Positions 1,021-22,257 of a stretch of DNA of 64,000 bases are shown piece after piece. A program made the position numbers and the translations under genes. The notes under the pieces are model-generated. The model was not told the origin of the DNA. It was given only the letters and a program-made list of their open reading frames with translations, and did no database searches. The stretch spans positions 84,933 through 148,932 of the forward strand of contig NZ_JBLXHQ010000005.1 in NCBI RefSeq assembly GCF_048259445.1, given 5' to 3'. Position 1 is the stretch's first letter, and every line of letters begins with the position of its first letter. This DNA comes from Marinobacter sp. GTDB taxonomy: Bacteria; Pseudomonadota; Gammaproteobacteria; Pseudomonadales; Oleiphilaceae.

Positions 1021-1050
1021 TAAATGCGCACTTATGCACTCGAATTTACC

Positions 1051-2853: not shown

Positions 2854-3164
2854 CACAGTTGCCTCAGCACCGCGCCCAGCAATTCAATGTTGCCCGCACG
2901 CAAGCCGGTAATCGACACACCACCGGGCAGAGACACCCTTAGCCCATCGGATGTTCCTGAGTCGGGAGCCGCCGTCACGCTGGCAAATCCGGACGATGCA
3001 ACCTCGTTTAATTCAGGTACGCCGAGCGTCAGTTTCATTCGCCAATACACAAACTGGCAATAGGTCAGCGATTGTTTCTTGCAGGAGGCCATGCCGGAAA
3101 GGCCGGACGCCTGCCAGTCCGTGATACGCTGCTGCCAGATCTGTTCTCGTTGAGTGTGTACCAT
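2853..3164 (-). CDS. IS66 Orf1/TnpA-like protein
   Basis: MVHTQREQIWQQRITDWQASGLSG, starting from the internal ATG at 3162-3164. A paralogous fragment lies at 1134-1225. Confidence 0.6.
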   Translation of the reverse strand: MVHTQREQIWQQRITDWQASGLSGMASCKKQSLTYCQFVYWRMKLTLGVPELNEVASSGFASVTAAPDSGTSDGLRVSLPGGVSITGLRAGNIELLGAVLRQL

Positions 3165-3250
3165 GCTGATTTCCTCTACTATTGGCGAGGAAATCAGTGT
3201 CGGCAATCTTGGTGCTGGGGTGTAGCTGCTGGTTCATTGGCGCTTACAAT

Positions 3251-5535: not shown

Positions 5536-6566
5536 GATGGGCGTCTCATGTTGCAGCTCTTGCACAAATCCAGGCTACGGTAGTTCCTGACAAGGTGCAC
5601 GTAATGATCGCCGTTGATCACTTCTTCAACTGACGTATCCACCAGGTTCCCAAAATCACCAAGAGACTTGCGCTGTTGGTCCGGGGCGCAGCAGACATTA
5701 AAACGCCCAGTCGGATCGACCCAGATCTCCTTGTTCAAAAATGGGCACTCTCCATCCGGCGCTATGTCATCAAGATTCGCCAGATCGAGTTTGAAAAAGT
5801 TGTCCAATCGGGGTGCGTGGCCACCTAATGTTTCCTGCTCTGCGACAAATGCCTGGCACTCGTCTACGACCCGGTTCCATTGAGTGGCGTAAACGATATC
5901 ATTCCGCAGGCTTTGGGCTTCCAATTCAGGAAAGTGAGCCCAGAGCTGATGACCTTTGACACGGTCAAAGCCCATGGAGGCTGCCAAACGAACCATATCT
6001 GGAATTTCATGCAGATTCTGGCGCATGAAGGTGAGCTGCATTGTCACGGAGCAGTAGTTGCTATTGGCCAGTTCATCCCTGACGGCAATGAATCGCTCGG
6101 CTTTTTCAATGTGTTCTTCCAGGTCTGCGCCAAGCATGATGTCTCGGTGGGTTTCTGAGGTCGCTCCGTTCCAGCTGATTTTCACATCACTGCCGACGGG
6201 CACGATGCGCCTCGCCCAATGCTCAACACTCTGATGTTTTTGGGGCCCTGGAAAGGTTCCGTTTGTCGTCAGATTGAGTTTCAGGCCCAGCTCATTGCAC
6301 AGCTCCAGGAACAACTCGAAATGTGGGTATAGCAGCGGCTCTCCCATCGTCGAGGGAATAATCTCGCAGAAACCAAGTCCGGCTACTTCCCTGACCACTT
6401 TTTCCAACAGTCCCTTATCCATAATGGGACGCAACCTGCCTTGGGCACTACGCGTTGTCCGGTCGTCACCGTACGGAGAATGGTCTTCGCACATGACGCA
6501 TTTAAGGTTGCAAAAATCCGGATTGGTATCGAGCGTCGCTCGCCAAAATGCTGGTTCTAAACTCAA
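5532..6566 (-). CDS. Radical SAM protein with C-terminal SPASM/twitch-like cysteine cluster
   Basis: CNLKCVMC (CX3CX2C) at about residue 19. C-terminal segment is CPFL...NVCCAPD...CKSCN. TTG start overlaps the upstream stop (TTGA). Confidence 0.75.
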   Translation of the reverse strand: MSLEPAFWRATLDTNPDFCNLKCVMCEDHSPYGDDRTTRSAQGRLRPIMDKGLLEKVVREVAGLGFCEIIPSTMGEPLLYPHFELFLELCNELGLKLNLTTNGTFPGPQKHQSVEHWARRIVPVGSDVKISWNGATSETHRDIMLGADLEEHIEKAERFIAVRDELANSNYCSVTMQLTFMRQNLHEIPDMVRLAASMGFDRVKGHQLWAHFPELEAQSLRNDIVYATQWNRVVDECQAFVAEQETLGGHAPRLDNFFKLDLANLDDIAPDGECPFLNKEIWVDPTGRFNVCCAPDQQRKSLGDFGNLVDTSVEEVINGDHYVHLVRNYRSLDLCKSCNMRRPS

Positions 6567-7858
6567 TTCATAACTCGCTTGTATTGCTGTTCCAAGTCAA
6601 TGACGTGCTTTTGTATGCAGGGAATATCTCCATCATCGCTGAATAAATAGCCCCGCTCCCCAAGGCTCCGGGCCCACGCAGGGTTCTTTACGAGACGCTG
6701 CATCTGGTGGGATAGATCTGCAACCTCTCGATGCTTATAGAGAAGTCCATTAACCTCGTGGTGGACATATTCGCCCATGCCACCGGCGTCAGCCGTGATC
6801 ACCGGAACCCTGGCTTGCTGAGCCTCATGGATCACCAGCGGCGAGTTCTCAACCCAGATAGACGGTGTAACGATTGCGTCGGTTCTATCGAAGACATCTT
6901 TCGTAATTTGCTGATTCTTGTATTCCGGCATCCAATGAATCCGGGCCTGCTTTTCAGCAGGGAGCGTGTCGGCAATTGCCCTCAATGCCCTACTATCCTG
7001 GCCTCTGTCTCGTCCCCAAATTCGCAGCTGGCAGTCTCCTTCCACCCCGCCGAACGCTTGAATCAACTGATGGATGCCTTTCGCCGGTATATGCGTGCCG
7101 ATGTAGCCAAATGTGAAAGGCTCATCTGCCGTCCGCTGGCGATCAACCATTCTGCCTCGATCGAAACCGTAGTCGAGATATATGCTCTTTGATTTTGGCA
7201 GCCCAAAATCTTCTTCATATCTCGTTTTTAGGTATCGGGACGGAGAAATGAAGAGATCCACCTGATCGACGACATCACGGACATGCGCCATGCGTCGCCC
7301 AACCCAATTCTCCCAATAGGCAATGTCCCGCTCGAACTCATCCTCTGCCCCCGAAAAATATCGTGCGTAACATTGCGTCGCACATTTTCTGTTCTCCTGA
7401 CCATCACAAGCAGCCCAAAGATTGTCGTCTTCCGAATGCATTTGCATAAACTGGCCGCGAGGACACATCAACCAATAATCATGCAGGGTATAGACGACCG
7501 GAACGTCGCGGCGCTTCGCTTCAAACACCAGCGACGTTGATAAGTGGTTCAAATGCCCGATGTGGACGACATCCGGCTGAAGCTCATCAAGCAGTTCAGT
7601 GAAACGTTGGTCAATTACCGACAGTCTGTATCGATCACGGTGGCGTGGATTGTTCACCAGATGGATCTTAATAGCCGGTCTATCCTGGTCTAAGTCCTGC
7701 CGGATCGCCCCGTCAGGCTTGAAGGAATCTTCCTCTCTGGTAAAGACATGAACCTCGTGACCTCGATCAGCAAGCGCATGGCAAATCGTCTGTGAGTAAA
7801 CTTCAGAGCCCGCGTTGTAGAGCATCGGATAGCCATGGATTACTTTGAGAATCTTCAT
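6563..7858 (-). CDS. Glycosyltransferase, GT4-like (GT-B fold)
   Basis: N-terminal YNAGSEVYSQTICHALADRGHEVHVFT and C-terminal PSIWVENSPLVIHEAQQARVPVITADAGGMGEYV...NGLLY (E-x7-E-type region). Confidence 0.75.
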   Translation of the reverse strand: MKILKVIHGYPMLYNAGSEVYSQTICHALADRGHEVHVFTREEDSFKPDGAIRQDLDQDRPAIKIHLVNNPRHRDRYRLSVIDQRFTELLDELQPDVVHIGHLNHLSTSLVFEAKRRDVPVVYTLHDYWLMCPRGQFMQMHSEDDNLWAACDGQENRKCATQCYARYFSGAEDEFERDIAYWENWVGRRMAHVRDVVDQVDLFISPSRYLKTRYEEDFGLPKSKSIYLDYGFDRGRMVDRQRTADEPFTFGYIGTHIPAKGIHQLIQAFGGVEGDCQLRIWGRDRGQDSRALRAIADTLPAEKQARIHWMPEYKNQQITKDVFDRTDAIVTPSIWVENSPLVIHEAQQARVPVITADAGGMGEYVHHEVNGLLYKHREVADLSHQMQRLVKNPAWARSLGERGYLFSDDGDIPCIQKHVIDLEQQYKRVMN

Positions 7859-8757
7859 ACAGTCTCAATCAATGAAGTGTTGGTTTTGAATGCTCTTACC
7901 AAGGCGCAGATTCCTTCAGTCGGGGTGATTGTGGCCTCCCAACCCAGCAATCTTTTAGCGCGCTCAGGGTTGCCTATGAAACGAGCCACATCATAAGTAC
8001 GCGATGGTCCGGCATAAATGGTCGAATCTGAACTGGCAGCATCAACCGCTATTTTGGCTGCTTCCAACAAAGTCGTCCCCATTCCTGGTAGCAAATGGAT
8101 CGGAGGCAAATAGCGCTCATTAGCTTCGAGCACCGCTACAATCCGGGCAATTCCCCTAACTGTGTCGTCGACATGAGTGAAATCGAAAAGGTGGTTAAAG
8201 CCGTCCACCCTTAGTGGTCGGCCCTCGGCAGCATTTCGACAAAAAGCAGGTAAAACGCGGTCTTCGTGATCCTCAATGCAACCGTACACATTAGCTAGGC
8301 GCACGATGGCTGTGTTCAAGCCTGTATCCCGAGCTTCAAAAGCGTATTGCTCCATTTTAGCTTTGGCTCGTCCATAGATATTGACAGGGCAAACAGGAGC
8401 TTCCTCAGACACTGGAAGCAATTCGGGCTCCCCGTAGACCTCTCGACTACTGGCAAATAGCACCCAGGGCTTCCTTGTGAGCTTCGAGGCCTGCTCAAGA
8501 ATCGCAAGACTAGCTACGGCATTTGTTTCCCAGCAAAGAGACGGATTCTGCTCGCCCCATACAACTCTGGACACTGCGGCAAGGTGAACCACCCCAATAA
8601 CGTCTGAGATAGCGGGACAAATATCCTCTGACCGAGTGATGTCGCCACTGTTGTCCGATATATCCAGCCCAATAACCTCGTAACCCAAATTTATAAGTAA
8701 TGGAACGAGATGTCGCCCGATAAGACCACGGTGACCAGTCACTAGAATTTTTTTCAT
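7855..8757 (-). CDS. NAD-dependent epimerase/dehydratase (extended SDR)
   Basis: KILVTGHRGLIGRHL (TGxxGxxG) and YGRAK (YxxxK). Confidence 0.8.
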   Translation of the reverse strand: MKKILVTGHRGLIGRHLVPLLINLGYEVIGLDISDNSGDITRSEDICPAISDVIGVVHLAAVSRVVWGEQNPSLCWETNAVASLAILEQASKLTRKPWVLFASSREVYGEPELLPVSEEAPVCPVNIYGRAKAKMEQYAFEARDTGLNTAIVRLANVYGCIEDHEDRVLPAFCRNAAEGRPLRVDGFNHLFDFTHVDDTVRGIARIVAVLEANERYLPPIHLLPGMGTTLLEAAKIAVDAASSDSTIYAGPSRTYDVARFIGNPERAKRLLGWEATITPTEGICALVRAFKTNTSLIETV

Positions 8758-9089
8758 TGATGTACAGCCTTACCTTGCAGTTGCGCAGGATCAGGAATCT
8801 CGGAATGAAGAACTATCAAATTGACGTGCAATTATTCCGTGGCGTTTGGAAAATCGAAGTTTCACCGTGATGGAATGCGGATAAAGCTGAGACTGTTTTT
8901 TGCTTCATTGACGATATCTTGCTGTCCTTGAGCCTTCCAACAGAACACTGGATTAAGTCGCGTCCCGCCTACTGAAAAAAACTAATGGAGTAATGTACTG
9001 AATTACATAGATTTCGTCTATTGTGAATAGGCCGAGCAGCACTCCGACATGCGGCCATTTCGCTCAAATGGATTTTGCTTTTTTCATTC

Positions 9090-9695
9090 TCATAGAAGCT
9101 TGCTGTTGATGTCGGCCTTTTCCAGAGCCCGTTTCATTTTTACCCGGTATTTGTCGGGTGTTCCGCCATATTCATTCGCGAGGTCGACGTAACTCCAGCC
9201 GGAAAGTGACTGTTTTATAAGGGTAATATCCTCATAATTCAAACCTCTGCTGGAGAGTAGTGCATCAACCCGCTCAGCATCGAGCTGCGCTAGATTCATT
9301 TCCAGTTCCATGTGCTGATCCCAGAAATCTGAGCTGTCGGGTCGGTCAGAACCAAACACATGACGAGCCCTGCTGCCCAGTTTTCCCTTCTCGTTTTCAT
9401 GAGACCACCGCGTCAAACGTGTGTTGCAGTATGACTCAACAGCGGTATAGAGGTATTTCGATACTGGGTGTTTGAGTATCTCCTCATCAGGTACAGCTTC
9501 TTCGAGTTGAAGACCGGAAGTTTTGTTTTCACGCGCTTGAAACAGTGCTCGAATTGAATCTCCAAGCGCATCTTCCGCAACTTGCCGGACCTCAGATCCC
9601 AGGATATGCCCCAGTTTCTTTCTGGTAATCCGAAGTGCCATGGCTTTAACCCTGGGGTCTATCGCCACCCTTCCAATTTCGATATCAGTGAGCAT
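9090..9695 (-). CDS. Divergent sigma-70/ECF-like protein (region 2-like and region 4-like segments)
   Basis: AEDALGDSIRALFQ...YLYTAVESYCNTRLTRW resembles ECF region 2. LSGWSYVDLANEYGGTPDKYRVKMKRALEKA resembles a region 4 HTH. Strong SD (AAGGGGAGG) 7 nt before the ATG. Confidence 0.4.
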   Translation of the reverse strand: MLTDIEIGRVAIDPRVKAMALRITRKKLGHILGSEVRQVAEDALGDSIRALFQARENKTSGLQLEEAVPDEEILKHPVSKYLYTAVESYCNTRLTRWSHENEKGKLGSRARHVFGSDRPDSSDFWDQHMELEMNLAQLDAERVDALLSSRGLNYEDITLIKQSLSGWSYVDLANEYGGTPDKYRVKMKRALEKADINSKLL

Positions 9696-9752
9696 TTCGA
9701 ACCTCCCCTTTGTCGAACTTCAAGTCTCATTTAGAGAGCTAAAAACCCCAAA

Positions 9753-9772
9753 TTACAAAATGTTACAAAATA
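9753..9772 (+). repeat. Tandem decamers TTACAAAATG / TTACAAAATA in the putative right end (possible TnsB sites)
   Basis: Direct tandem repeat read in the sequence. The following AGTCTTAAA recalls the Tn7 TnsB-site core as I remember it. Confidence 0.35.
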
Positions 9773-9975
9773 GTCTTAAAGCAGATTTGAGAAAAATATC
9801 TGTTTTTTTAACAGATCCTTGTTCGGTTTTCCTCAACTAATTAGTTATTTACGAATAAGCGCCCCAACGTAAGATTTAATTTAATGGAAATTAAATAAGA
9901 AAAACAACGTGTTACCGAGTTGACGGGGATTTTTTTGCGGTATTGAATTACCCCCACTGATCAAGGAATAGCCAG

Positions 9976-10584
9976 ATGGAAAACCGAAAATTAGCAAAAC
10001 AGTCACCCTACAGAAATTCTTACATGAGCCGGGCTGTCAAAACGAATTGTGCGCTGGCCTTTGAGAGTGCACTGGAGCGGGATTATTTTCATCTGCTCGA
10101 ATTCGATGAACGGGTCAGCTTTTTTGAGGCGCAGCACGAGACTACTCATTATCAGCTCGGTGAAAAAGACGCGAGGTATACACCTGATTTCTTTGTTGTT
10201 CAGGATGGCGTTGCTTTCGTGGATGAGGTCAAACCTTTCTATAAGACACTCGATCCTGAATTTCAGAGAACAGTTCGCCGATTCACAAAGTTGTTCTTAG
10301 ACAAGGGATTTCACTACCGGGTTATTACAGAGAAAGAGATCTATTCCGGTGAAAGACACCACAATCTTCGGTTTTTACATCCCAAGCTTGGGGATGCACC
10401 TCCACATCAGGAATTTGAGCAGCTCTGCCAGACTCTGACTGAACGGCAATTTGTTGTTTCTGAACTTCAGGAAATTCTGCCACAGCATGGGCTTTCGCCT
10501 TGCCTGGTCAGTCGGGCTGTCGCTCATCGATTAATGCAAGCTGATCTGACGAATCATTGGCCTTCAATCGTTGCGCATTGGTAA
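9976..10584 (+). CDS. tnsA: TnsA-like transposition endonuclease
   Basis: ESALERDYFHLLEFD...YTPDFFVV...FVDEVKP gives the E...D...K restriction-endonuclease-like triad in TnsA order. Confidence 0.85.
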   Translation: MENRKLAKQSPYRNSYMSRAVKTNCALAFESALERDYFHLLEFDERVSFFEAQHETTHYQLGEKDARYTPDFFVVQDGVAFVDEVKPFYKTLDPEFQRTVRRFTKLFLDKGFHYRVITEKEIYSGERHHNLRFLHPKLGDAPPHQEFEQLCQTLTERQFVVSELQEILPQHGLSPCLVSRAVAHRLMQADLTNHWPSIVAHW

Positions 10585-12586
10585 CGAATTTAATCACCAA
10601 ATCAATTTAACTGTCAGGAGCAAACCTTTGATCAATCCATCGATTCACCAGCCAGGCACACGAGTCTCATTTCATGGCTTAAGTGGAACATTGACTCCAT
10701 TGGCCCAAAACATGATTGCGATTGTAATGGATCGAGATCCGGCGACGCCTGTCTGCATTTCGGTTGAGGAAGCTGAGAGGCGACTCCACAAAGAGTTGCT
10801 TTTTCTGACAACAAAGTCTCAAAACAATCTCATCGACATGGAGCTGAGCAGCAGGCAGCTTCTCTATCTTCAAAAGGTTAACGCGTATTTAGATCAGCTT
10901 TGGAAAGTCGTTCCAAAAGGTAAAACGGGCGGCGTTGCAAAGCGAGCAGCCGTGATCAAGTTTGTCAGTCAGTTGATCGGAGACAGCAACCCGCCTGACC
11001 CATCTACGCTCGCACGATGGGTGGCGACAGCCAATTCTCATAGCCAAGGCGTGCTTGCGACATTGCCATCCAATAATCGCGTTGGTGGCTCGAAATTTGG
11101 AGAAGATGTGAAGGACCTTTTTATTGCGGTCGTCAAGGAGCACTTCCTTAATTTACGTCGGCCACCAAGAACGAAAGCCTATGCGGTTTTCGTTGAGAGA
11201 CTAGAGCAAGAACTTAAGCGATCGGAAACATCTGAGATCCCGAACTATGGCACTTTTTGCAACTGGATCAAGAAACTTGATCCGTCAGAGGTTGCTGAAA
11301 AAAGGGTCGGGAAGCTTGCAGCAAAGTCACTGAGCCGCAACGCCTCTAAAAAGATCGTTTTGAACCGCATTCTTGAGCGGGTGGAAGTCGATGCTTTGAG
11401 AACTGGAGTTGCCGTTACTGATGAACAGAAACGATATCTTGGAAACGTAATTCTCTTTCTGGTGATTGATTGCTTTTCGAGGGCGATCCTCGGCTTTCAG
11501 CTTCAGATCGGAGGAGGTGAATTGGCGGCATCCGTCATTGACTCGTACAAGCACTCGTTAATGCCAAAGCATTCAGAAGAAGTGGACCCTTCAATCAAAA
11601 ACCCCTGGCCAATGTATGGTGTTCCTGAGCAGATTGTAAGTGATGGTGGCCCTGGTTATGCAGCTCTAAAAACGCAATCGTTTCTGCTTCATGCTGGTAT
11701 CGCTTCGACGATGGTCCAGACATATAGCGGCGAAAAGAAACCGTTCATTGAGAGTTTCAATAAAACGATTAGACTCCAATGCCTAACAGATATCCCAGGC
11801 TACACTCCGAAAAACCCGAAAGACCAGCCATTGGATGCAACGATCGGCCAACAGGCTGTCATTACTCTCGATACGCTGAAACGCAAAATCACGAAGTGGA
11901 TCGTGGACGATTATCATCAGGAGCCACATGACGGCCTCCTGGGTAGAACGCCATCTCAGGTATGGACAGAAAACGCAAAGCTTTTCCCACCCGCCGTGCC
12001 AGCAGGCCTGTTCTCACAGCTAAGCATGACCCATGGCGAAACCAAAACACCGAAAATCATGGGTCCGGATGGACACCTTGGCATCGTCGTCGAAAACGTT
12101 GAATACAACGATCACGGCAAAAGGTTGAAGTCCATTCATAATCAGCTCAAACAGCTTGGAGAAGAGCCACGCGTGACCTGTGAATACACGCCTAATGATA
12201 TTCATACAGCGACTGTTAGAGACCCCATTACTGAGGAGCGTTTTCAGGTCTTTGCGAAAGATCCCCGGATTCTGCCAGGCATGACTTCGGCGGAATGGAA
12301 CGCTATTCGTCTGGAAAATAAACCAAAACGACAGGTTAGACGATCGAGCCTGGCCAACGATCAAGAACTAGCGAAGGCACATAAGCAAAACAAAAAACAG
12401 ATTGCCGCCTCGAGCAAAAGGAAACAAGCCACGGCAAATCTCTCCGAGATCACTGAAGGCATGCGTGAGCTAGGCAATCTGAGACCGGAACAACCGACGG
12501 ATATCGCTGCGAGTGAAAGCTTCGGTACTGCTTTTGACCGCCTGTTTAATGATGATTCTGACGAAGAGGGCTTCGATTGTGTCTAA
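10571..12586 (+). CDS. tnsB: TnsB-like DDE (Mu/rve-type) transposase
   Basis: LVIDCFSRAILGF (D), VSDGGPGY (D), ESFNKTIR (E). The track start at 10571 is TTG. A TTG at 10628 has a better SD (AGGAG, 7-nt spacer). Confidence 0.9.
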   Translation: MRIGNEFNHQINLTVRSKPLINPSIHQPGTRVSFHGLSGTLTPLAQNMIAIVMDRDPATPVCISVEEAERRLHKELLFLTTKSQNNLIDMELSSRQLLYLQKVNAYLDQLWKVVPKGKTGGVAKRAAVIKFVSQLIGDSNPPDPSTLARWVATANSHSQGVLATLPSNNRVGGSKFGEDVKDLFIAVVKEHFLNLRRPPRTKAYAVFVERLEQELKRSETSEIPNYGTFCNWIKKLDPSEVAEKRVGKLAAKSLSRNASKKIVLNRILERVEVDALRTGVAVTDEQKRYLGNVILFLVIDCFSRAILGFQLQIGGGELAASVIDSYKHSLMPKHSEEVDPSIKNPWPMYGVPEQIVSDGGPGYAALKTQSFLLHAGIASTMVQTYSGEKKPFIESFNKTIRLQCLTDIPGYTPKNPKDQPLDATIGQQAVITLDTLKRKITKWIVDDYHQEPHDGLLGRTPSQVWTENAKLFPPAVPAGLFSQLSMTHGETKTPKIMGPDGHLGIVVENVEYNDHGKRLKSIHNQLKQLGEEPRVTCEYTPNDIHTATVRDPITEERFQVFAKDPRILPGMTSAEWNAIRLENKPKRQVRRSSLANDQELAKAHKQNKKQIAASSKRKQATANLSEITEGMRELGNLRPEQPTDIAASESFGTAFDRLFNDDSDEEGFDCV

Positions 12587-12590
12587 GTCA

Positions 12591-13550
12591 ATGAATACGG
12601 CCGAATTGGCTAATCTTTATGAGTCAATTGACGACGTTGGGCAGAAAGAGGTCACAAAACGAATTCAGGATGCGGCGATCCTGCATCCGGAGTTTAAAAA
12701 GGCTATGAGAGCGATCCGCTACGCGCACTCTATGCACGGCTCGAAAGAAGCTGGAATGATCCTGACGGGATTAACAGGCACAGGTAAGTCAACGGCCGTC
12801 CAGACCTATATCGACGCTTATTTGGCAAGCCGCCCCGACCTCGAAACCGATGAGCTTACGAAGCTTCCGATTTTGAAGGTCAAGCTTACAGGTCGCCCTA
12901 CCTATAAGGGACTGCATAAGCAGATTCTCCTGGCGGCGGATCACGTTAAGGTATCCGGTGACAGCACCGATCTCTACGAGTGCATTAAAACAATGGTTAC
13001 AGAACAAGGTGTGGAAATGCTCATTATTGATGAGTTCCAGCACCTCTTGAGTGAGCAAGCCCGTATCTCAACGAGAGATGTTCTGAACCTAATCAAAAAT
13101 CTTATGGATGATTGCAGATTCACGTGTTTGCTCGCAGGTCTACCAGAAGGATTAGAAGCTTTTGTAAAGCATGATGAGCTTCGCCAGCGCTTTGCAATGA
13201 ACCGGTTTCAACTCAATCCTTTTTCCATTAAGGATCAGGCCTCTATTCAGGAGTTCAAAAAGTATCTGGAGGTTTACGACAAAAAGCTCAAGGAAGAAGG
13301 CATTCGGAGTATTTCTCTAGCATCAAAGTTCATGCTTCCTCGAATCTACCTGGCAACACTTGGCCTACCTCGGGCCATCATTGGGCTTATTTCGAGCACA
13401 TTGGATCTCAACGACATTGGAGTGCCTCTTACAAAGCATCATTATGCGAAAGGCTACTCGCGTATTTTTCTTGACAATGATCTCACCTCAACATTCAACC
13501 CTTTCCTGTCTCAGGACGTCGCCGTTTTCAAAAGATTAGAGGAGCAATAA
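12591..13550 (+). CDS. tnsC: TnsC-like AAA+ ATPase
   Basis: GLTGTGKST (Walker A) and MLIIDEFQHL (Walker B). The ATG at 12591 lies just after the tnsB stop. Confidence 0.85.
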   Translation: MNTAELANLYESIDDVGQKEVTKRIQDAAILHPEFKKAMRAIRYAHSMHGSKEAGMILTGLTGTGKSTAVQTYIDAYLASRPDLETDELTKLPILKVKLTGRPTYKGLHKQILLAADHVKVSGDSTDLYECIKTMVTEQGVEMLIIDEFQHLLSEQARISTRDVLNLIKNLMDDCRFTCLLAGLPEGLEAFVKHDELRQRFAMNRFQLNPFSIKDQASIQEFKKYLEVYDKKLKEEGIRSISLASKFMLPRIYLATLGLPRAIIGLISSTLDLNDIGVPLTKHHYAKGYSRIFLDNDLTSTFNPFLSQDVAVFKRLEEQ

Positions 13551-15067
13551 TGCGATTCGGTGTCAGGCCCTTCCCTGAAGGCATGGAAAGTCTTGCCGGT
13601 TATTTAGTTCGTCTTGGAAGACGCAATGGACTCGCGTCGTTGCAAGAAGTCGTTGGGCTATGTGACTCCCGCTTGAGTGCAAAAGCTAGGCCGGATAAAT
13701 GGGGTGCCGGACATTGCAATAGGATTTGTGAGGGCTTGGCGCTTAGGTTGGGGCGGGACAGTAAGCAGATTATTGACCATTTCCAATATGAACTTGTGCT
13801 GGCACAATCTGTCGATCCGCTTCGAATGATCAAGAATTTGAAAACAGGCATGCCGCGCATTTGCACGTGCTGTACATCTAAAAACGGGTTTATGGATTGG
13901 CGATGGGGCCTTGGACACCTAGCCCACTGTCAGGAGCATGGTACGCCTCTCGTCGATTGTTGCCCGAGTTGTGGCAACGAATTGTCGTGGAAGCCAGAGC
14001 TGCTGGAACGCTGCCCTTCCTGCAAAATCACATGGAGTGAGGCTGCTCAAAAGAAACAACCCATTTCAAACCTGGAAATGACGCTATGGTCTGAGGCAGT
14101 TGATGGCCACCTGGGAGATGCCGAACTTCTCCGTGAGATTTCTTCATCGATGGTTCTGATGGCTCGCCCATTTGATTCAGCGCTAGACCCAATCAACGGA
14201 GTACCGCTGACCCCGAACCTCTGGCAGCTCACCGCCTCAGCGTATACCTTTCTCGCAGCTAAGAAGTACCAAAAGACGTTAATGAAGGAGAGGTCCAAAC
14301 GAAAGGCCTTGCCTGGCATCGCTAACGACCTGTCACAAAGGCTGTCTTTGATCCCCCCGATGAAAAGCGCCAACAAAAGGCTCCCCGTTTGCCCAGAAAC
14401 TGCACTTGAAATGCACGCTGAGAGCGGGCGGATGGAATTTGTCACCGCTAAAAGAAAGGCTATCAACGGAAACGGCTCAGACGCGGCGCTGGAAAACCAC
14501 ATTACCGCCTCTTCCCTATCTTCTGCGCTGGGTATTTCCATGAGGGAGTTGCGATGGAGCATTGAGGCTCAATGCATGACGGCCCTCAATGACACTCAAG
14601 TCATCAGACAGAAGGTTTTTGACATCCGGGATCTGGCAACCTTGCCGACGATCCAAGATGAAAAGCTCGAACACCAACCTACGACTATTGTGGAAATGAG
14701 TGATTTGAGGCTAGACCGGCACCTGACAGGCTTTGGGCGCTTGCTTGCAAAGGTCTGGGGCCGTGAGCTTTGCGGCTACTTGTTCTGGGACAATAACCTT
14801 CCAAAGATTGTAGTCGACGAGACACATTTCTTAGGGTGGTTAAGTGAAGAACTTGAGGTGCACTGCACTCAAAACGTCGAATGCTATCTAGCGATGGCGG
14901 CTTTGCACTGTGGCAAAAGTAAACTGATGTCCCTTGTCGCAGCCGGAGAACTCGAGTGCATTGACTGGGAAAGCGGAGGGCGAGATCAAATCACCGGGCG
15001 ATCATTTTTTTGCTACGTGCGAAAGCTGTACGCACTGGAGCCACCAGTCATCCCTGGGAATACCTGA
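13550..15067 (+). CDS. tniQ: TniQ/TnsD-like target-selection protein
   Basis: N-terminal PFPEGMESLAGYLVRLGRRNGL (TniQ signature) and a Cys4 zinc ribbon CPSCGNEL...CPSCK. The start overlaps the tnsC stop (TAATG). Confidence 0.8.
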   Translation: MRFGVRPFPEGMESLAGYLVRLGRRNGLASLQEVVGLCDSRLSAKARPDKWGAGHCNRICEGLALRLGRDSKQIIDHFQYELVLAQSVDPLRMIKNLKTGMPRICTCCTSKNGFMDWRWGLGHLAHCQEHGTPLVDCCPSCGNELSWKPELLERCPSCKITWSEAAQKKQPISNLEMTLWSEAVDGHLGDAELLREISSSMVLMARPFDSALDPINGVPLTPNLWQLTASAYTFLAAKKYQKTLMKERSKRKALPGIANDLSQRLSLIPPMKSANKRLPVCPETALEMHAESGRMEFVTAKRKAINGNGSDAALENHITASSLSSALGISMRELRWSIEAQCMTALNDTQVIRQKVFDIRDLATLPTIQDEKLEHQPTTIVEMSDLRLDRHLTGFGRLLAKVWGRELCGYLFWDNNLPKIVVDETHFLGWLSEELEVHCTQNVECYLAMAALHCGKSKLMSLVAAGELECIDWESGGRDQITGRSFFCYVRKLYALEPPVIPGNT

Positions 15068-15331
15068 AAACATTGGTTACTTAGAGAAGAGCGCAAAAGA
15101 TGCGAATATTTGGCTGCCAGGGCGATTGAGCGGGCCAGAACTAGCGCAGAGGTAGGTTATTACGATCTCTTAGGCGACCAAAACTCCCTATGCACACCGG
15201 CACCAAAGCGGCAGTCGCTCCGGCGGGGAAAGCGTAAGCTTCTGATACTAAATAACCTTCGGTCCAACCATCTCTTGCTCTCCCCGTGATTCGTTTTATA
15301 CGCTGACTCGTGGAACCTTACTTGCTATGAG

Positions 15332-15674
15332 CTACAGTACCACTGCCTTTAACCAATGTTCAAAAGAAGATCCTAGTGCGACCACACCATTACCCCAACC
15401 AGAAAGGAGCTGCCACCCGACGGCAAGGTAATACGGGTTGTATGGCGCTTCTCTACTTTCATACAGTTCACGATCACTCAGAGAAGTTGCCAATATCGGC
15501 TGGGTCAAGTTTCTCCATTTTCCGGAAGCCCTCCTTCCCAATCGCTTTGAGTCTTTCAGGGGCAACCCGAAACTTACCTCTAAGTGGAGTTTTTTTAGAA
15601 GCCACATTACGATTATCGTTTGGGATTTCCCGAACCAAATTTCTTTCTTTCATTGCCATCACCAACTCTGCCAT
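15332..15674 (-). pseudogene. Small hypothetical gene apparently split by a 1-nt frameshift
   Basis: The 66-aa ORF 15474-15674 ends at TGA. The adjacent frame continues as SDRELYESREAPYNPYYLAVGWQLLSGWGNGVV down to 15332. No family recognised. Confidence 0.25.
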
Positions 15675-16090
15675 ATCCCCGAGTATAGCTTAAAAATTAA
15701 CCTACTAGTCCAATTGGCAGAGCAAAAGTCGCATCGTAGTCTTGGGTTGAAGCGCGCTTGGCGAAAGTCAATTTGTTGGACGGACACTCAAGGCCAGTTG
15801 TAGCAATGCAATGATCGCCTTGATCACAAATATTCTGTGCGACACATGGATTGACGCTACTGCCTATCGCTGATAGATTCCAAACTCAACTTGATCACGG
15901 CCTTTAGGGTCTGATAGTGGCATTCACGAAAGATATCCCGTCCGGGGTTCTTCGAGGCTGGCAGCCTTTGTCGCTAGATGTCAGTGATAGCTGCATGGTG
16001 ATTGTAAATTGGGGATCAACCTTCAGGGTGGTCCGGTTCGTATTCGGGGAGCCATAGCCCGACATACGGCATCAATTTATAGGTGCCACC

Positions 16091-16486
16091 ATGCCCATCA
16101 AAAACGCACAGCGTACTGCTCCCGCTTACCGACACTACAAGCAAATTTCATACGAAAACCTAGCCGCTAGCTGGTTTACGGCTGATGGCTGGGAAGTGTT
16201 TATGCCAGTTACAGACCATGACCGGAAAACCGATCTTGTTGTGGCAGACGACAACCACTACTACCGCATACAAGTGAAGTCACTGGAAAGTGGTGATGAT
16301 AGCGTGTTCGTTGAGAATAAGTGGCGAGAGGCCAACATCGACTATGTTATCTACTTCTCGCGCACCTCCGATTGGGGCTATATCACTCCCGCCTTTTCAG
16401 AAGGTAGGCGCAAACTCAACTCTGCGGGCCATGTGCGCTTCCATCAACATCAGAAGCCCTTTGCGAAAGCGTTCGATAAAGCATGA
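16091..16486 (+). CDS. PD-(D/E)XK nuclease-fold protein (stand-alone, 131 aa)
   Basis: GWEVFMPVTDHDRKTDLVVADDNHYYRIQVKS fits the D...(D/E)-x-K arrangement (D-LVV ... IQVK). Confidence 0.45.
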   Translation: MPIKNAQRTAPAYRHYKQISYENLAASWFTADGWEVFMPVTDHDRKTDLVVADDNHYYRIQVKSLESGDDSVFVENKWREANIDYVIYFSRTSDWGYITPAFSEGRRKLNSAGHVRFHQHQKPFAKAFDKA

Positions 16487-16525
16487 GCTTTACCCGTTTG
16501 CTGTAAACAACTGTCAGGTCAGTCT

Positions 16526-16563
16526 GATCGGCGCTGCGTGTCCAGCGCCTGATCTTTGTTGTT
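16526..16563 (+). terminator. Intrinsic terminator after the nuclease-fold gene
   Basis: GATCGGCGCTG-cgtgtc-CAGCGCCTGATC stem with one bulge, followed by TTTGTTGTT. Confidence 0.5.
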
Positions 16564-16674
16564 CAGTTTCTTGACTGTCGGCCATCGACCAGGTCTTTAG
16601 GGTACAGCAACCTGATATAGCCTCTATCACTCCGAATTTTCCAGGTTATAACGGTTAGAAATTCTGGGCTTCCG

Positions 16675-16724
16675 CCCCCACCTAAGGGCGCGATAGTAGG
16701 TTCGAGTCCTGTCGGGGGACACCA
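16675..16724 (+). other. tRNA-like 3' fragment (T-arm GGTTCGAGTCC, G-rich acceptor-like strand, ACCA)
   Basis: The sequence reads CCCCCACCTAAGGGCGCGATAGTAGGTTCGAGTCCTGTCGGGGGACACCA. No matching 5' acceptor strand, D arm or anticodon arm lies upstream. Confidence 0.3.
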
Positions 16725-16743
16725 AATATTCTTTGAACACCCC

Positions 16744-17085
16744 TTAATGCCAACGGCTTGCCTGATATTCAACAAGCTCACTGTGATACAAAACGGTATC
16801 CAAATTGGTATTCAGCACCTCAAAGCTAGCTCCCAGCTTATCCAGTTCCTCAGCGATCTTGAGCAAGTCTGAGGTGGATCGTGCCAGCCGGTAGAGCTTA
16901 CAGACAACCAAGGTATCCCCCGGTCCTAGTACATGCTGCAAAGGGCCTTTGTAGCTCCGCCCGTGCAGATGTCTTACCGGACGCCTTCTCTGACTTGATC
17001 CTGTCACAACCGGCTTACCCCAACTGCGCTAACTGGGCCTCCAGGCTCTGGCCTGTGGTGCTTACTCTGCATACCCGCATCTCAT
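16744..17085 (-). pseudogene. Serine recombinase (resolvase/invertase) catalytic domain, multiply frameshifted and C-terminally truncated
   Basis: Pieces sit in three frames: MRCGYAE / VSTTGQSLEAQLAQLG / DRIKSEKASGKTSARAELQR / GDTLVVCKLYRLARSTSDLLKIAEELDKLGASFEVLNTNLDT. Similarity ends at about 16803. Confidence 0.7.
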
Positions 17086-17437
17086 TGGGCTGTCTCCACG
17101 CGTGGTTTGTTTACAAGATAGCTGTCCACACCGGTAAAGACACTCTAAGGTCACCTTATGACCCCTCCAGCCTGCCCACGTAGACCGTGGCCTGCATGAA
17201 CAAACAGGAAGCTGAAAACAAACAACAAAATTACATTACGAGATAATTATGAGTAAGCATGACCCGAAAACCCAAAACCACAACATATAGTGTCTGTGCA
17301 TTTTTCATGCAAGTCAGTAATTTTAAAAACAAATACGATATACAACTGATTTCCCATTGATTTTCTTTGCCAGAAACCACTTATCAATAGTTCCGCTTAA
17401 ATTCACAAGTCACTATATCCTGATAGACTAACCACAC

Positions 17438-17475
17438 ATAAAGAAAAACCCCGAAAGCATAAGCCTACGGGGTTT
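17438..17475 (-). terminator. Intrinsic terminator for a minus-strand transcript
   Basis: On the minus strand, AAACCCCG-taggcttatgctt-CGGGGTTT is followed by TTCTTTATG. Confidence 0.55.
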
Positions 17476-17852
17476 CCAAGGGCTGCGAAGGCGTCTTCCG
17501 TCAAAAAGTACCTTCGCTTAAATTCACCAAGCCAAATGAGGCTCGATGTGAGTGGATGATAGTACAAAACTTGGCAGAGCGCAGCCAATAGGTTGTGGCA
17601 ATCGCCGGAGGTTTGAACTGTAGTCAAACTCCTACCTTGTCCCTTTGGCCCCTACTTGAGGGCTATCCAAATGGTAGTTCGTCCTGATGTGTACGTCAGG
17701 TCTTACTTCCGGACGGTGCGAGGCGTACTGCAACACGTATGCGCGCACCTTCGCAGTAGACCCCGACGCTAATCGTTGAAGCGAATAACTGGCGGTCAGC
17801 ACTGAACAAAGGCCGCCAGCCTGTACCCAGGGACAACAGAAAGGAGACCTCC

Positions 17853-17978
17853 TTGTCCAAATCAAAGAAGCACCGTAGTGCAGTAACTGGGTTATACGTC
17901 ACTGAAGAGTATGCCCGCAAACATCCACGTACAACGGTGTCTGAATCAACAGGCAAGCCAAAGAAACCGAAGAAGTAA
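17853..17978 (+). CDS. Small basic protein (41 aa)
   Basis: AAGGAG lies 6 nt before the TTG. Product is MSKSKKHRSAVTGLYVTEEYARKHPRTTVSESTGKPKKPKK. The SAVTG.YVT..YA.KHP.TTV pattern resembles a widespread small-protein family as I recall it. Confidence 0.4.
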   Translation: MSKSKKHRSAVTGLYVTEEYARKHPRTTVSESTGKPKKPKK

Positions 17979-18176
17979 CAAGCAACAGTGACACACGGAC
18001 GTGTCGCCTCCCTCCAGAATTCTGACTTCTCTTCGACTCTTTCTGTGGAACCGGCGATATCGGGACTACAGCCATTAGCTTTCCGGCACCTGCTTTACAC
18101 ATGACAAGGTTGATGTTATAAAATACTAAAAATTAAATAAACTCAGAAACATAGAGCATACACCTAAACACAAAAT

Positions 18177-18308
18177 CTCATCTTATTTTGAATTATTGGG
18201 TAAAAATCTCTTGTTCAATTTGAATGTCCGAAATACCTAGTTTGAAACCTTTCCGATAAGCCCCTGTTTTCTCGTAATAGCGAGTCTCACGTATCTTTGA
18301 AATCTACA
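18177..18308 (-). repeat. Transposon-end-like array: TGT terminus plus four similarly oriented TTCAAA-containing sites
   Basis: Read inward on the minus strand: TGTAGATTTCAAAGATACGTGAG (18286-18308), GGTTTCAAACTAGG (about 18236-18254), CATTCAAATTGAAC (18208-18229), AATTCAAAATAAGATGAG (18177-18199). Confidence 0.35.
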
Positions 18309-20015
18309 CGACGAGCAACTATAATGCGACGCTCCACCAACCTCAAAAAACTCCAACGGCTTCAGCCTGTAATATTTCTCTTCCACGTCATTCGATTGCT
18401 CAGCGTATGGCTGCGTCATAACCTCCTGCAGCTCTCGAATTAACGCGTAATCCCCCGCAGCTGCTTGCTGATAAGCAGGCACAACCAACCACTCCCGCAA
18501 ACTGTATTTTGGATTCACGAGATTCATCTGGCGAGACAGCGCCTCACGAGACTGAGGTTGAGTGGCCGATTTCCATTTTGTAAGCCACTCAGACCACCGC
18601 TTGTCCAACCCCAACGGATCCGATCCATCCTTTGAGTTCTTGTAGAAGCTCTTTTTAAGCGGGCCAATATCGTCAGGTACCGTTGAGAGCTCGCGAAAGA
18701 AAATGGTGTAATCCACAGGTGTTTGCACCATGAGCGTTGCGAGCTCGCTGAACAGCGCGGGGTTAAAAGCATCTAGCCCAAGTTTTGCAGCCCACATGCT
18801 TTCCAGTTGCGCTTGCATCACCTTTGGAAACTCGCGTCGAATCTCATCGAGTTTTCGCAGACAGTCCTGATGTTCCTTCAGCAATGGCTGCAACGCCGAG
18901 CAAAACATGTGGAAATTGCGTTCGGCTGCTACAGGCTGGTTCAGAAACGAGTAGTGGTGTCCCCCACCCGTCCATGGCTGGTAATGCGGATCAAACACTT
19001 CACAAAATCCGAACGGACCGTAATCGAGTGTGAAGCCCCCGGCCGCACAGTTGTCGCTGTTGAAGTTGCCCTGGCAGTAGCCGACACGAATCCAGTTCGC
19101 CACAAGCGATGTGAGCCGGCTGCGAAACTCCCGCGCAAGCAACACCACTTTTTCGGCAGTTGTCAGCGCCTGGTCGATCACTTTTCCGTACTCACGATCG
19201 ATCAGGTGCAGCACAATCTTCTCGAGCTCCTCCATCGCTTTTGGGTGTTCATTCTTTCGGGCTCGGCGAGCAAAGAGTTCAAGTTGACCGACCCGAAGGA
19301 AAGACGGTGCGACCCGCGTCGAGATCGCGACTGGTTCCGCGACAAGTATGTCCGGATCTCTCGAATGTGAGCCCTCCGAATACCATGGCCGCCTGACCTT
19401 CTCCGTTTTCGAAACGTACAGACTCAAAGACCGCGACGTTGGCACCCCGAGCGCGTGCATGTGCTCCTGTGCCAGAAACTCCCGGGCACTCGACCGAAGA
19501 ACAGCCCGCCCATCGCCGCCCCGGCAGTATGGCGTTCGACCGCTGCCTTTTAGCTGCATTTCCCAGCGTCGATCGTTAATGGCAGCCTCAAACACCGAAA
19601 TTGCTCGCCCGTCGCCGTATCCGTTGCCGGTCTGGAATGGGCACTGCTGAGTATATTCGGTACCGTAAATGGAAAGTGCGTAACCACACGCCCAACCGAC
19701 CTTGCGCATTGGCTCTGGAACGCTCGCAAGATCGCCGGAGAACACACGGATAAAGTCAGTCGACTGCGCCAGGTTGTCGGCAAAGCCCAGTTCGCGAAAC
19801 AGGTCTTTGCTGTGCGCGACGTACTCAGGGTTTTCGATTGGCGTGGGACTAACGGGCACATAGTGGCCCGTGAAGACCTGGCGCGGATCGTGGTCGAGCC
19901 CGTCTGCTCTCGCATCAGGGTCGCATTGGAGGGAATCCATCAGTGAATAATCTGCACACTTTGCAAGATCGTCGAGTGTTGCGTGAACTAGGAGCCGTTT
20001 GCTGTCATGTCCCAT
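18237..20015 (-). CDS. selO: Protein adenylyltransferase SelO (YdiU family), with an atypical 23-aa C-terminal extension
   Basis: [57 protein letters not shown], and the ...HYSCSS motif followed by [23 protein letters not shown]. Confidence 0.85.
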
Positions 20016-20046
20016 GTAATTCCCTGGTTTTTCTCATTTCAATAGA

Positions 20047-20826
20047 TCATTGGCGATCCATAATCGCTTGCAAATCCACCATCGCATCCTGATTTACAGT
20101 GATGAATCCGCTTTGCGGCCGATCAAGATCAACCACCAGTGTGATAAGCACCGCGAATGCAATCGTTAATGGCATAACTGCAACAATCCTTCGCTTGCCG
20201 TAGAAGCCTAGCTGCAACCCCAATATGGCAATAGAGAGAAGCGTAATGATCAGCAACCCTGCCCAAACGCTGCCAGGAATCTGACTGTTTACCGCAGTGA
20301 TCTTTCGTCGTTCCCCGAGGTTGATCACATCGATTATGGACTGCGCCACTGTGCCCATAATACCGTCCCGAGTGAGCGGTGCAATCTCGACGGCCTGCTC
20401 CCAAAGCGATTGGTAAATTTCAATAGACTTTGAAATCGCGCTCTCCAGGTCGCGATCGTGTACAACCTGAACTCGTACCTCAACGTAATTACGAAGCAGG
20501 CGTTTGATTTCAACGTTGTGCGGCGCGGCAACCAGATCCGCAAGCAGGTAAGCGCTGTGAATCGCAGCCGCTTCGGAAACAACGTTCTGTTTACGGGCTT
20601 GATACTGCTCTATTGCTATGGAAAACGTTAACGCGAGGATAAAAGCCAGCATGCTGAGCAGCCCGGCCACCATAGAACCAATTGAGCTTGGAGCCTCCTT
20701 GTCACGCAACGTGCGTCGATGGTACCGGCCGAGCAGAAAACCGACTTCGCATGCAATATATATCAACACTGCCATTCCCAGAAAGAGAACTGGCATTTGA
20801 GATGTCGCTACTAATCCCGCGATCAT
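20047..20826 (-). CDS. DUF4239-like membrane protein
   Basis: Two N-terminal and two C-terminal TM segments around a helical core. The pattern is as recalled for the DUF4239 family. Confidence 0.45.
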   Translation of the reverse strand: MIAGLVATSQMPVLFLGMAVLIYIACEVGFLLGRYHRRTLRDKEAPSSIGSMVAGLLSMLAFILALTFSIAIEQYQARKQNVVSEAAAIHSAYLLADLVAAPHNVEIKRLLRNYVEVRVQVVHDRDLESAISKSIEIYQSLWEQAVEIAPLTRDGIMGTVAQSIIDVINLGERRKITAVNSQIPGSVWAGLLIITLLSIAILGLQLGFYGKRRIVAVMPLTIAFAVLITLVVDLDRPQSGFITVNQDAMVDLQAIMDRQ

Positions 20827-20870
20827 TGACCGCTTCCTTTGATTTAAGAGTGGCCGGGCCTAAGCTTTCA

Positions 20871-21710
20871 TTACTTCTTAGGAAACAGGAGCGTAAACGT
20901 GAAACGCAGTCCCCATTCGGGACCATTGTCCGGGGCATCAAGGTAATAGCGGGCGCCGCCCTGAAAGCTTACCAATTGCTCACCAAGTTTGGTCACTTTG
21001 CTGTAGGCAACATTCAGCGGAACGGTCCACTGCTCGGCCTCCCAGTTATAGGTAGACTCGAGGGCGACATTTACAGTGCGGCCGCTGCCAAGACCCTTTG
21101 CAAGGAACGGCTGCAAATAGGTGGCGTTAACGTCCTCACGGTCGCTCTCCCCGGCAAAGGACCAGAGGTGATTAGCCAGTGCTCCGTATGTCCAACCGGC
21201 GGTCGTTTGTTTGAGTGCAACGATAGTGGGACCAGCACCCCATTTTTCTGTCCCAAGCAGGTCATCGGTTGCGGTGGGAATAAGAAAAGCCGGTCCGGCG
21301 CCCCATGTCCAGCCGCTTGCCGTCAAAGCCTTTGGCGAGAAAAACAGGCTCTGCGTTACATCGCCAAGGCCAGACTGGTCGCCAGCACCGGGAAAGATCT
21401 CATCCTGATAAACGAGCGGGACGATCGTGCGCGAGATCATATTCCAGTCTTCACCGATCGAAACGGGTATCACTGGCTGAACATTGAGGGTGTATTTGTA
21501 GCCGTCATCCTGGGTGCCGATGCCGTCGTCATAATTGAGCTGCATGGGTACGCTGGTCAGGCTGGCAATGGGATTTGCAAGTTGCTTGGCCAGCTCGTCG
21601 GCAGACCCTTGCGCATAGGCAGCAGAGCAACTTATGCCGAGCGGTATCGCCAAAACAGCCAGCGAGCAAGCTTGCCGTACGAGAACATTCTTTTTTAATT
21701 CAGAGCGCAT
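20871..21710 (-). CDS. Outer-membrane beta-barrel protein, MetA-pathway (Phenol_MetA_deg)-like
   Basis: Signal peptide from the ATG at 21708-21710 (MRSELKKNVLVRQACSLAVLAIPLGISCSAAYAQ) with a GGAGA SD. Alternating beta-strand pattern and C-terminal ...RFTFTLLFPKK. Confidence 0.5.
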   Translation of the reverse strand: MRSELKKNVLVRQACSLAVLAIPLGISCSAAYAQGSADELAKQLANPIASLTSVPMQLNYDDGIGTQDDGYKYTLNVQPVIPVSIGEDWNMISRTIVPLVYQDEIFPGAGDQSGLGDVTQSLFFSPKALTASGWTWGAGPAFLIPTATDDLLGTEKWGAGPTIVALKQTTAGWTYGALANHLWSFAGESDREDVNATYLQPFLAKGLGSGRTVNVALESTYNWEAEQWTVPLNVAYSKVTKLGEQLVSFQGGARYYLDAPDNGPEWGLRFTFTLLFPKK

Positions 21711-21777
21711 GCTTTTAATCTCCGCCCGCAAGGGTATCTCCGACTCAACGAAGGTGTGCAAAGGTTTTTTCTTCTAT

Positions 21778-22257
21778 TCACTTAACAGTGTAGCCACGAC
21801 CTTCAAGACAGGCAGCATAGGCACGATTAAAGTCGTCCTTCTTGGCAGTGGATTGAGCTACCAGCTGCTGCTCCTCCTGTTGATGTTCCGCCTCTGCCTC
21901 CCGATTGGCACGGCGCTGCCTGAGCCCACCAACAACGGCGCCTGCCACGGCACCGCGCCTCGCTGCTTCCGAGCTATCGCCCGCGATGGCACCGAAAGCG
22001 GCACCACCAGCCGCGCCATGCACTGCCCCACCCGCTTGCTGCTCGGGCTCAGAAAGAGCCACGCTGCCAGTCGCCGGATTAGCCGGATCGTAACCAGTAT
22101 TTGTTTTGGCCCAGTTAGAACAGTCAAGCTTGTCCTTTGCCTGTTGGTCAGACGACTGCCCTTTATCGGGATAGATGAATAACTCCTGTGCCAGCGCCTG
22201 GTGCGTGGCACCGAGTAACAGTACTGAGAGCAAGCATGATGTACTTAACCTGTTCAT
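21778..22257 (-). CDS. Secreted glycine-zipper protein
   Basis: Signal peptide, the G/A-rich zipper GGAVHGAAGGAAFGAIAG...AVAGAVVGG, and C-terminal FNRAYAACLEGRGYTV. Confidence 0.5.
   Translation of the reverse strand: MNRLSTSCLLSVLLLGATHQALAQELFIYPDKGQSSDQQAKDKLDCSNWAKTNTGYDPANPATGSVALSEPEQQAGGAVHGAAGGAAFGAIAGDSSEAARRGAVAGAVVGGLRQRRANREAEAEHQQEEQQLVAQSTAKKDDFNRAYAACLEGRGYTVK

Follow-up and report, generated by a model that had tools for sequence, protein, structure and literature searches.

We analyzed a 64,000-nucleotide stretch of DNA from Marinobacter sp. (NCBI RefSeq assembly GCF_048259445.1, contig NZ_JBLXHQ010000005.1, positions 84,933 to 148,932 of the forward strand), referred to here as the window, in which tnsA, tnsB, tnsC and tniQ form an operon (9976-15067). 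We consider it very probable that this operon is part of a 28,235-bp Tn7-like transposon that homes beside dif, the noncoding recombination site at which chromosome dimers are resolved. We demonstrate where the transposon ends, that a target duplication flanks it, what the empty site looks like, and that insertion keeps a constant distance from dif and a constant orientation toward it. Plain positions are those of the window, C5 denotes the contig, and G and L numbers denote genomes and loci, G000 being the present genome. The features that carry the argument are as follows.

9976-10584, plus strand: tnsA, 202 aa (PF08722, 2.4e-7; NF033179)
10628-12586, plus strand: tnsB, 652 aa from a TTG start (rve/rve_3)
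12579-13550, plus strand: tnsC, a TniB-type AAA+ protein of 323 aa (PF05621, 2.1e-21)
13550-15067, plus strand: tniQ, TnsD-like, 505 aa (PF06527, 5.6e-7), the only selector candidate
9090-9695, minus strand: sigma-like gene, 201 aa, divergent from tnsA, a conserved transposon component
9696-9975, no strand assigned: region between the sigma-like gene and tnsA, with noncoding blocks conserved from about 9750 onward
18090-18308, minus strand: tniQ-side (selO-side) transposon end, the terminus TGTAGATTTCA beginning at 18308
18284-18301 and 18175-18192: predicted TnsB-site-like repeats in the selO-side end
18309-18312, no strand assigned: first copy of the 4-bp direct repeat CGAC (plus-strand sequence), abutting the selO-side end
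C5:75002-75005: second copy of CGAC, abutting the far (dif-side) end
18237-20015, minus strand: selO (Pfam SelO, 1.4e-67), of which 18309-20015 is native
1-18308, no strand assigned: part of the transposon within the window, the dif-side end lying 9,926 bp left of window position 1 on the same contig
G000, C5:75006-103240 (window -9926 to 18308): whole transposon, 28,235 bp, delimited by its termini and their repeat motifs, by the 4-bp direct repeat and by the reconstructed empty site

The four core genes are intact, with overlaps of 8 nt between tnsB and tnsC and of 1 nt between tnsC and tniQ, which confirms their description as intact and coupled in a preliminary description of this DNA. A TnsA-type endonuclease gene adjoins a TnsB DDE transposase gene, and a TnsC/TniB AAA+ regulator is encoded in one operon with a TniQ/TnsD-domain selector. 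Pfam assignments and a scan of open reading frames (ORFs) across the 28-kb element also bear out the earlier view of a Tn7-like tnsABC-tniQ system with a single TniQ/TnsD-like selector and without tnsE or CRISPR-Cas: no tnsE or cas gene was found among those ORFs and no Rfam match in the window, and with neither cas genes plus a CRISPR array nor tnsE inside it, the element is not a CRISPR-associated or TnsE-bearing Tn7 relative. The 652-aa form of TnsB is the form called in databases, and TnsA keeps a length of 202 to 206 aa in all relatives. The TniQ protein combines an N-terminal TniQ domain with a long C-terminal part and contains two conserved Cys clusters, and its family profile matches the TniQ and TnsD chains of solved structures. 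The window tniQ is intact, versus the interrupted gene of the 98%-identical TARA/ENA metagenome copies (L028), where an IS21-family IstA/IstB unit (L028:10735-13348) lies inside tniQ at the equivalent of window positions 14518-14526.

Both termini of the transposon begin with TGTAGATTTCA, and their first 11 nt are identical at C5:75006 and at window position 18308. A TnsB-site-like motif (TTCAAA, 4 to 6 nt, TGAGA) occurs in two strict copies per terminus, inverted between the ends, together with looser copies; it is present 61 times in the whole genome and, within C5:60-110 kb, at the two termini only. The element has the TGT...ACA termini, with several internal repeats of putative transposase-binding type at both ends, that are found in Tn7-like transposons. 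The selO-side end, of about 220 bp, is 65 to 88% identical in L014 (G042), L035, L036, L037 and L038 (E values of 1e-16 to 3e-19), and each homologue starts TGT..ATTTCA, with flanking DNA that differs among the five loci. A pattern scan gave a sixth, in Marinobacter changyiensis (L050; 73% over 134 bp), which is a solo end remnant beside host-like genes. In G042, the dif-side end has a counterpart with 70% identity over about 400 bp (E value of 1.7e-38), and this end was also found in the metagenome loci L084 and L085. An inverted-repeat search of 8500-22000 returned no end pair because the true partner end lies outside the window. A small ORF by the selO-side end was tried as a family-conserved gene and rejected, since it has no similarity across the family.

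Homology of selO to nine species of the genus ends exactly at 18307; the relatives end with ...TCGTCGTGA, and the window continues into TGTAGATTTCA... instead. Positions 18237-18308 encode a 23-residue SelO tail that is read from the transposon end after ...SCSS, because the insertion displaced the selO stop codon to the far flank. When the two flanks are joined minus one CGAC, they give a selO ending in ...SCSS and a TAA stop, followed by 31 nt and then dif, and the dif-flank sequence after the joined selO is 100% identical to that of G001 just after its selO stop codon. In the element-free Marinobacter genomes G001, G148 and G150, selO is directly followed by dif. Since CGAC abuts both ends and the joining of the flanks restores both the selO stop and dif, we conclude that the transposon arrived in a single insertion event, in the interval bounded by the final sense codon of selO and the chromosomal dif site. 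The related element of M. santoriniensis NKSG1 (G042) has the same arrangement. It is flanked by the 4-bp direct repeat CCAC, and its flanks minus one repeat copy are collinear with the uninterrupted G001 only if the repeat is 4 bp long; the G000 repeat could be read as 5 bp if one terminal base were shared, the G042 repeat could not. In G042 (L014:930-960), the last six SelO residues, including CSS, are replaced by a Cys-stop from the transposon end. Insertions beside dif can alter the redox-relevant C terminus of SelO, a possible cost to the host.

The sequence beyond the far end contains a conserved 28-mer, ACTGCGCATAATGTATATTATGTTAAAT, that matches the tabulated dif sites of Escherichia coli and Shewanella (PMC2731167). 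The E. coli K12 entry in that table is GGTGCGCATAATGTATATTATGTTAAAT, and other gammaproteobacteria are listed with 28-mers that are nearly the same (PMC2731167). The 28-mer is present as a single copy in 133 of the 151 genomes of the genus (119 of the 123 genomes of good quality), and at about 75 kb on the contig the GC skew, until then near zero, becomes steadily negative. On sequence grounds, the conserved sequence beside the far end is the chromosomal dif.

The far end of the transposon faces the XerC arm of dif, with a spacer of 38 nt in G000, 41 nt in G042, 39 nt in L084 and 42 nt in L085, the last two being metagenome contigs that were found with a pattern allowing a spacer of 29 to 59 nt (a scan of viral contigs for a dif-plus-end pattern gave 0 matches). 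The four spacers are unrelated in sequence and the orientation of the element is always identical. Measured from the selO stop codon, the insertions in G000 and G042 are 19 nt apart, and measured from dif they are 3 nt apart; therefore, the constant is the distance to dif and not the position in selO. In L035, L038 and L050, the tniQ-side end directly adjoins a different kind of element at its terminus, and in many genomes of the genus this terminus lies 34 to 36 nt from dif. An insertion about 40 nt from dif would fall at the tip of that element, and these three loci therefore fit the pattern. As judged from the four dif-side junctions, insertion is orientation specific and takes place at a fixed distance from a conserved attachment sequence, as in other Tn7-like elements. 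Taken together, these data indicate that the transposon family homes to dif, presumably via the TnsD-like TniQ.

The second kind of element is the commoner of the two near dif in Marinobacter genomes. It was seen on the XerC side in L052, L055, L058, L062, L063, L068, L073, L077 and L078 and on the XerD side in L066, L072, L084 and L085. Its terminus, ...GTCGTCCA, is preceded by two or three direct 17-nt repeats, and its first gene encodes a 265- to 293-aa tyrosine recombinase (L082:695-1492, L083:568-1449). It was tried as a TniQ-bearing Tn7 relative, and no TniQ was found near dif in five such genomes. More broadly, selO and dif lie on one contig 14 to 49 kb apart in G005, G006, G012, G014, G018 and G019 and 2.3 kb apart in G010, which makes this interval a general hotspot for islands in the genus. 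The region downstream of selO has no common neighbor across nine relatives because islands sit between selO and dif.

Read from the dif side, the transposon consists of the dif-side end, about 20 kb of cargo, the sigma-like gene, tnsA, tnsB, tnsC and tniQ, about 3 kb of cargo and the selO-side end, and its GC content is 48.4%, compared with 54.4% for the genome. The operon is transcribed away from the target-side end, yet it lies about 20 kb from that end. In the metagenome locus L084, likewise, no core gene was found within 8 kb of the dif-side end, and no end motif was found within 8 to 10 kb upstream of the sigma-like gene in L029, L036 and L038.

The sigma-like gene had been taken for host flank. 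Its protein family has only seven clusters among 5.8 billion proteins, each examined one adjoining tnsA, and the gene is found divergently beside tnsA in every contig that reaches upstream of tnsA. Since the family occurs solely beside tnsA of this transposon family, the gene is part of the element. A fold model of the protein (predicted local distance difference test score [pLDDT] of 71) has two helical domains, and its best Foldseek matches are nearly all extracytoplasmic function (ECF) sigma factors. These matches are weak, with E values of 0.02 or worse and none at 0.001 or better, and a profile search against PDB sequences gave chance-level matches only, so that we keep the sigma-like identity of the 201-aa protein as a lead only. 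Alignment with L035 shows that the intergenic blocks at 9750-9975 are better conserved than the flanking genes. They include a tandem pair of the decamer TTACAAAAT and an AT-rich palindrome, which are candidate operators or promoters, and the region 9696-9975 probably holds a pair of divergent promoters or operators. The fold matches together with these conserved blocks suggest that the sigma-like protein regulates the divergent promoters of the element. Beyond the sigma-like gene, most relatives have a cassette of sugar and radical S-adenosylmethionine (SAM) genes, L039 and L040 have other genes, and L035 and L038 have a 7-kb block with a PD-(D/E)XK module.

The cargo totals about 23 kb, and not the approximately 1.7 kb proposed at first. 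From the far end, it comprises hsdR, hsdS and hsdM, a SLOG gene, two ThsB-like TIR genes, a metallophosphatase gene, an IS66 fragment and the sugar/radical-SAM cassette. The part to the left of the window (G000, C5:75270-84400; L041:10270-19360) holds a complete type I restriction-modification system and a SLOG-domain gene with two ThsB-like TIR genes, which is a Thoeris-like arrangement. Within the window, the following cargo features were identified.

1860-2543, minus strand: IS66-family transposase fragment (PF03050, 1.6e-43), inside the cargo
3251-8757, minus strand: five-gene sugar/radical-SAM cassette (His_Phos, methyltransferase, radical SAM-SPASM, glycosyltransferase family 4 [GT4] and epimerase)
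15829-16601, plus strand: PD-(D/E)XK (PDDEXK_5) module, with the gene at 16091-16486 (PF11645)
16675-16749, plus strand: tRNA-like 3' fragment and the right junction proposed in the preliminary description, internal to the cargo, L039 being collinear through 16749
16744-17007, minus strand: truncated serine recombinase (resolvase) fragment (partial PF00239, 2.7e-9), cargo

The sugar/radical-SAM cassette is present in L029, L034 and L036 to L038, and L039 and L040 have other genes instead. The PD-(D/E)XK module is 90% identical in L035 and L038, where it lies on the opposite side of the core genes; between the window (15829-16601) and L035 (7358-8126), this 90% identity compares with only 64% for tnsABC, a difference that points to recent exchange of the module between elements. 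The tRNA-like fragment (T-arm-like GGTTCGAGTCC ... ACCA) gave no tRNA or Rfam match. It is conserved in relatives, with about 12 extra nt upstream there (window 16640-16749, L039:3131-3230 and L028:15480-15523), and is directly followed by the resolvase fragment here, by a group II intron in L039 (Rfam RF02001, 138 bits) and by TPR genes in L028. The fragment may be a point of cargo exchange.

Several other explanations of the locus were weighed. The preliminary description had proposed a compact element of 7 kb (9711-16740) that was flanked by a CCCTT duplication and had inserted between a resolvase pseudogene and a sigma-like gene of the host. The landmarks on which that proposal relied are present: TGT lies at 9711-9713, 265 nt upstream of the tnsA ATG (9976), and the same hexamer, CCCCTT, occurs at 9705-9710 and at 16740-16745, directly after the ACA at 16737-16739. 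In addition, 9711-9724 is weakly similar to the true terminus (TGT.GA..TTCAA.G), and the cargo differs between relatives after 16686-16749. However, no 5-bp repeat abuts both TGT and ACA unless an extra C, written ACA(C), is allowed, and the quoted pre-insertion junction of resolvase and sigma-like gene is obtained only by removal of 9711-16745, not of 9711-16740. The hexamer repeat does not exceed chance expectation: when 15068-18330 was shuffled 2,000 times, one or more TGT/ACA pairs bordered by an identical hexamer arose in 9.7% of the shuffles, and another pair of this type (9761/17222, ACAAAA) is present in the real sequence. On the left, the hexamer is the ribosome-binding region of the sigma-like gene, and on the right it lies in cargo sequence that is common to L039 through 16749; such coincidences near TGT and ACA are no evidence of transposon ends. 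The TGT reads TCT in L034 and is missing in L035, strong noncoding conservation starts about 40 nt further in, and on the right the 98%-identical L028 diverges at 16686 (54 bp before 16740) and the approximately 90%-identical L039 continues through 16740 to 16749, so that neither stops at the proposed end. No inverted repeat links the two proposed ends, and neither has TnsB-site-like repeats. The element-borne sigma-like gene also speaks against this placement, and relatives have selO followed by dif where the resolvase-sigma junction would have been expected as the empty site. The true ends, with their empty site, are at C5:75006 and 18308, and ends homologous to that at 18308 occur in six other loci with unrelated flanks. 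The compact element can be virtually dismissed.

It is also unlikely that the family recognizes the conserved 3' end of selO, as Tn7 does that of glmS, with proximity to dif being incidental because dif follows selO in the genus. The G000 and G042 insertions both fall within the last 0 to 19 nt of selO, the C-terminal coding sequence of which is well conserved; against this, the two points agree far better relative to dif, the spacer to dif is kept in L084 and L085 without a selO tail, the flank in L037 is not selO, and the selO-side end abuts the end of another element in L035, L038 and L050. A composite island would require that the ends at C5:75006 and 18308 come from two elements, tandem or nested, and that the tns module has an undetected degenerate end near 8758-9089. 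The cessation of homology at 9073 with L039 and L040 and between 8758 and 9142 with L035 to L038, the cargo upstream of tnsA, unusual for Tn7, and the PDDEXK_5 module on that side in L035 would fit such an island. We nevertheless regard it as very unlikely, given that the 4-bp repeat matches across the outer ends, that removal of everything between them restores a collinear selO-dif, and that no internal end motif was found, neither here nor near the sigma-like gene of the three relatives searched; the dif-side end of L084 likewise has no core gene within 8 kb. Finally, the selO-dif interval might be a permissive hotspot of the terminus region where islands accumulate without a dedicated selector. 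Intervals of 2 to 50 kb between selO and dif in many genomes of the genus, and the second kind of element ending 34 to 36 nt from dif, are in keeping with this idea, which leaves unexplained the 38- to 42-nt distance and the single orientation in four lineages with unrelated spacers and which we hold to be highly improbable.

There are nonetheless points that weigh against a single 28-kb transposon homing to dif. A 4-bp duplication is unusual, the rule for Tn7-like elements being 5 bp, and both ends have been resolved in two insertions only (G000 and G042). The dif-side junction was seen in only four cases, the distance to dif varies by 4 nt, which is looser than that of Tn7 at attTn7, and the dif proximity of L035, L038 and L050 is deduced only from the end of the neighboring element. 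The operon lies at the target-distal end, with about 20 kb of cargo upstream of tnsA, unlike that of Tn7. TniQ is only a candidate for the protein that reads dif, and the AlphaFold model of TniQ was unusable (mean pLDDT of 39). The family is also rare: a TniQ search of 400 genomes of the order found no member outside the genus. A back-translated TnsB search of reference genomes gave no match, relatives of TnsB on metagenome contigs are 99%, 71% and 60% identical, and on the PicViral contig the far end was not reached after 10 kb more of walking. With these points considered, we remain confident that the real entity is a 28-kb Tn7-like transposon that carries a defense island and homes beside dif; the preliminary description was right about the kind of element and wrong about its boundaries.

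By analogy with TnsD at attTn7, the 505-aa TniQ can be envisaged as recognizing dif DNA itself or the complex of dif with XerC/XerD. TniQ would then recruit TnsC, and TnsA and TnsB would insert the element in a single orientation and at a defined distance, with dif left intact, in the present case 38 bp from the XerC arm and with a 4-bp duplication. We infer that TniQ is the reader of dif and the sigma-like protein a regulator of the element. A more far-reaching proposal, which we offer only tentatively and consider rather doubtful, is that of a distinct Tn7-like lineage with the near-universal dif as its attachment site, in which TniQ docks on the XerC/XerD-dif nucleoprotein and not on bare DNA, with its own sigma-like regulator, a 4-bp staggered cut and a target-distal operon. 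Such a lineage would reach the replication terminus without TnsE and without recognizing the end of a gene.

Programmable or site-specific insertion is what makes Tn7-like elements valuable, and dif represents a new kind of target. To our knowledge, every well-studied protein-guided attachment site of a Tn7-like element is a conserved gene end or an RNA gene, and full-text literature searches pairing Tn7 or TnsD with dif, XerC, selO or ydiU returned no report of dif as such a site. In most bacteria, each chromosome has a single dif, a noncoding site of 28 bp; were the selector to read dif or dif-bound Xer proteins, very many hosts would in principle be open to this machinery, with insertion at a predictable position in the replication terminus. 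Homing to dif also accounts for the selO-dif interval as a defense-island hotspot in Marinobacter.

The link between a Tn7-like core and Xer biology is reminiscent of the Tn6022/AbaR-type elements, which use TniQ and TnsF at comM, TnsF being a Xer-like tyrosine recombinase fold that is reused for target reading (PMC11014353, PMC10293859). Some Tn6022 elements carry a dif-like site as cargo (PMC11014353). Unlike the present family, where no TnsF-like gene adjoins tniQ, Tn6022 inserts in comM, and its dif-like site is not the attachment site. Members of the IS1202 family of insertion sequences, such as the 1.5-kb single-gene ISAjo2, encode a TnsB-like transposase and land next to dif or pdif, 5 bp away on the XerC side (PMC10132070). 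They likewise have TGT/ACA ends and orientation-specific insertion on the XerC side, with duplications of 3 to 5 bp in some subgroups (PMC10132070); the present element differs in its length of 28 kb, in having TnsA, TnsC and TniQ, and in its distance of about 40 bp from dif, and it is not an IS1202 dif hunter.

Integrative mobile elements exploiting Xer (IMEX), of the CTXphi type, share dif as a landing place. They enter by XerC/XerD recombination within dif, whereas insertion of the present element is the work of a DDE transposase, takes place next to dif and produces a duplication. The Tn5053/Tn402 elements (TniA, TniB, TniQ and TniR) are TniQ dependent and home to the res sites of plasmids and transposons without TnsA. 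TniQ-dependent homing to a site-specific recombination site is common to both groups, and the presence of TnsA and the chromosomal dif region as target set the present family apart.

The closest comparison is with Tn7 itself (TnsABC plus TnsD, with attTn7 downstream of glmS), which likewise has TGT...ACA ends with internal repeats, keeps a set distance and a single orientation when it inserts next to a conserved sequence present in one copy, which is left intact, and has an operon that points away from the end nearer the target. What distinguishes the present family from Tn7 is its target, which is the noncoding recombination site dif and not a gene end, and an apparent 4-bp and not 5-bp duplication, with a distance that varies from 38 to 42 bp; it has no TnsE and a TnsA of only 202 aa. 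It differs as well in its gene layout, with about 20 kb of cargo between the target-side end and tnsA, and in its conserved, divergent sigma-like gene.

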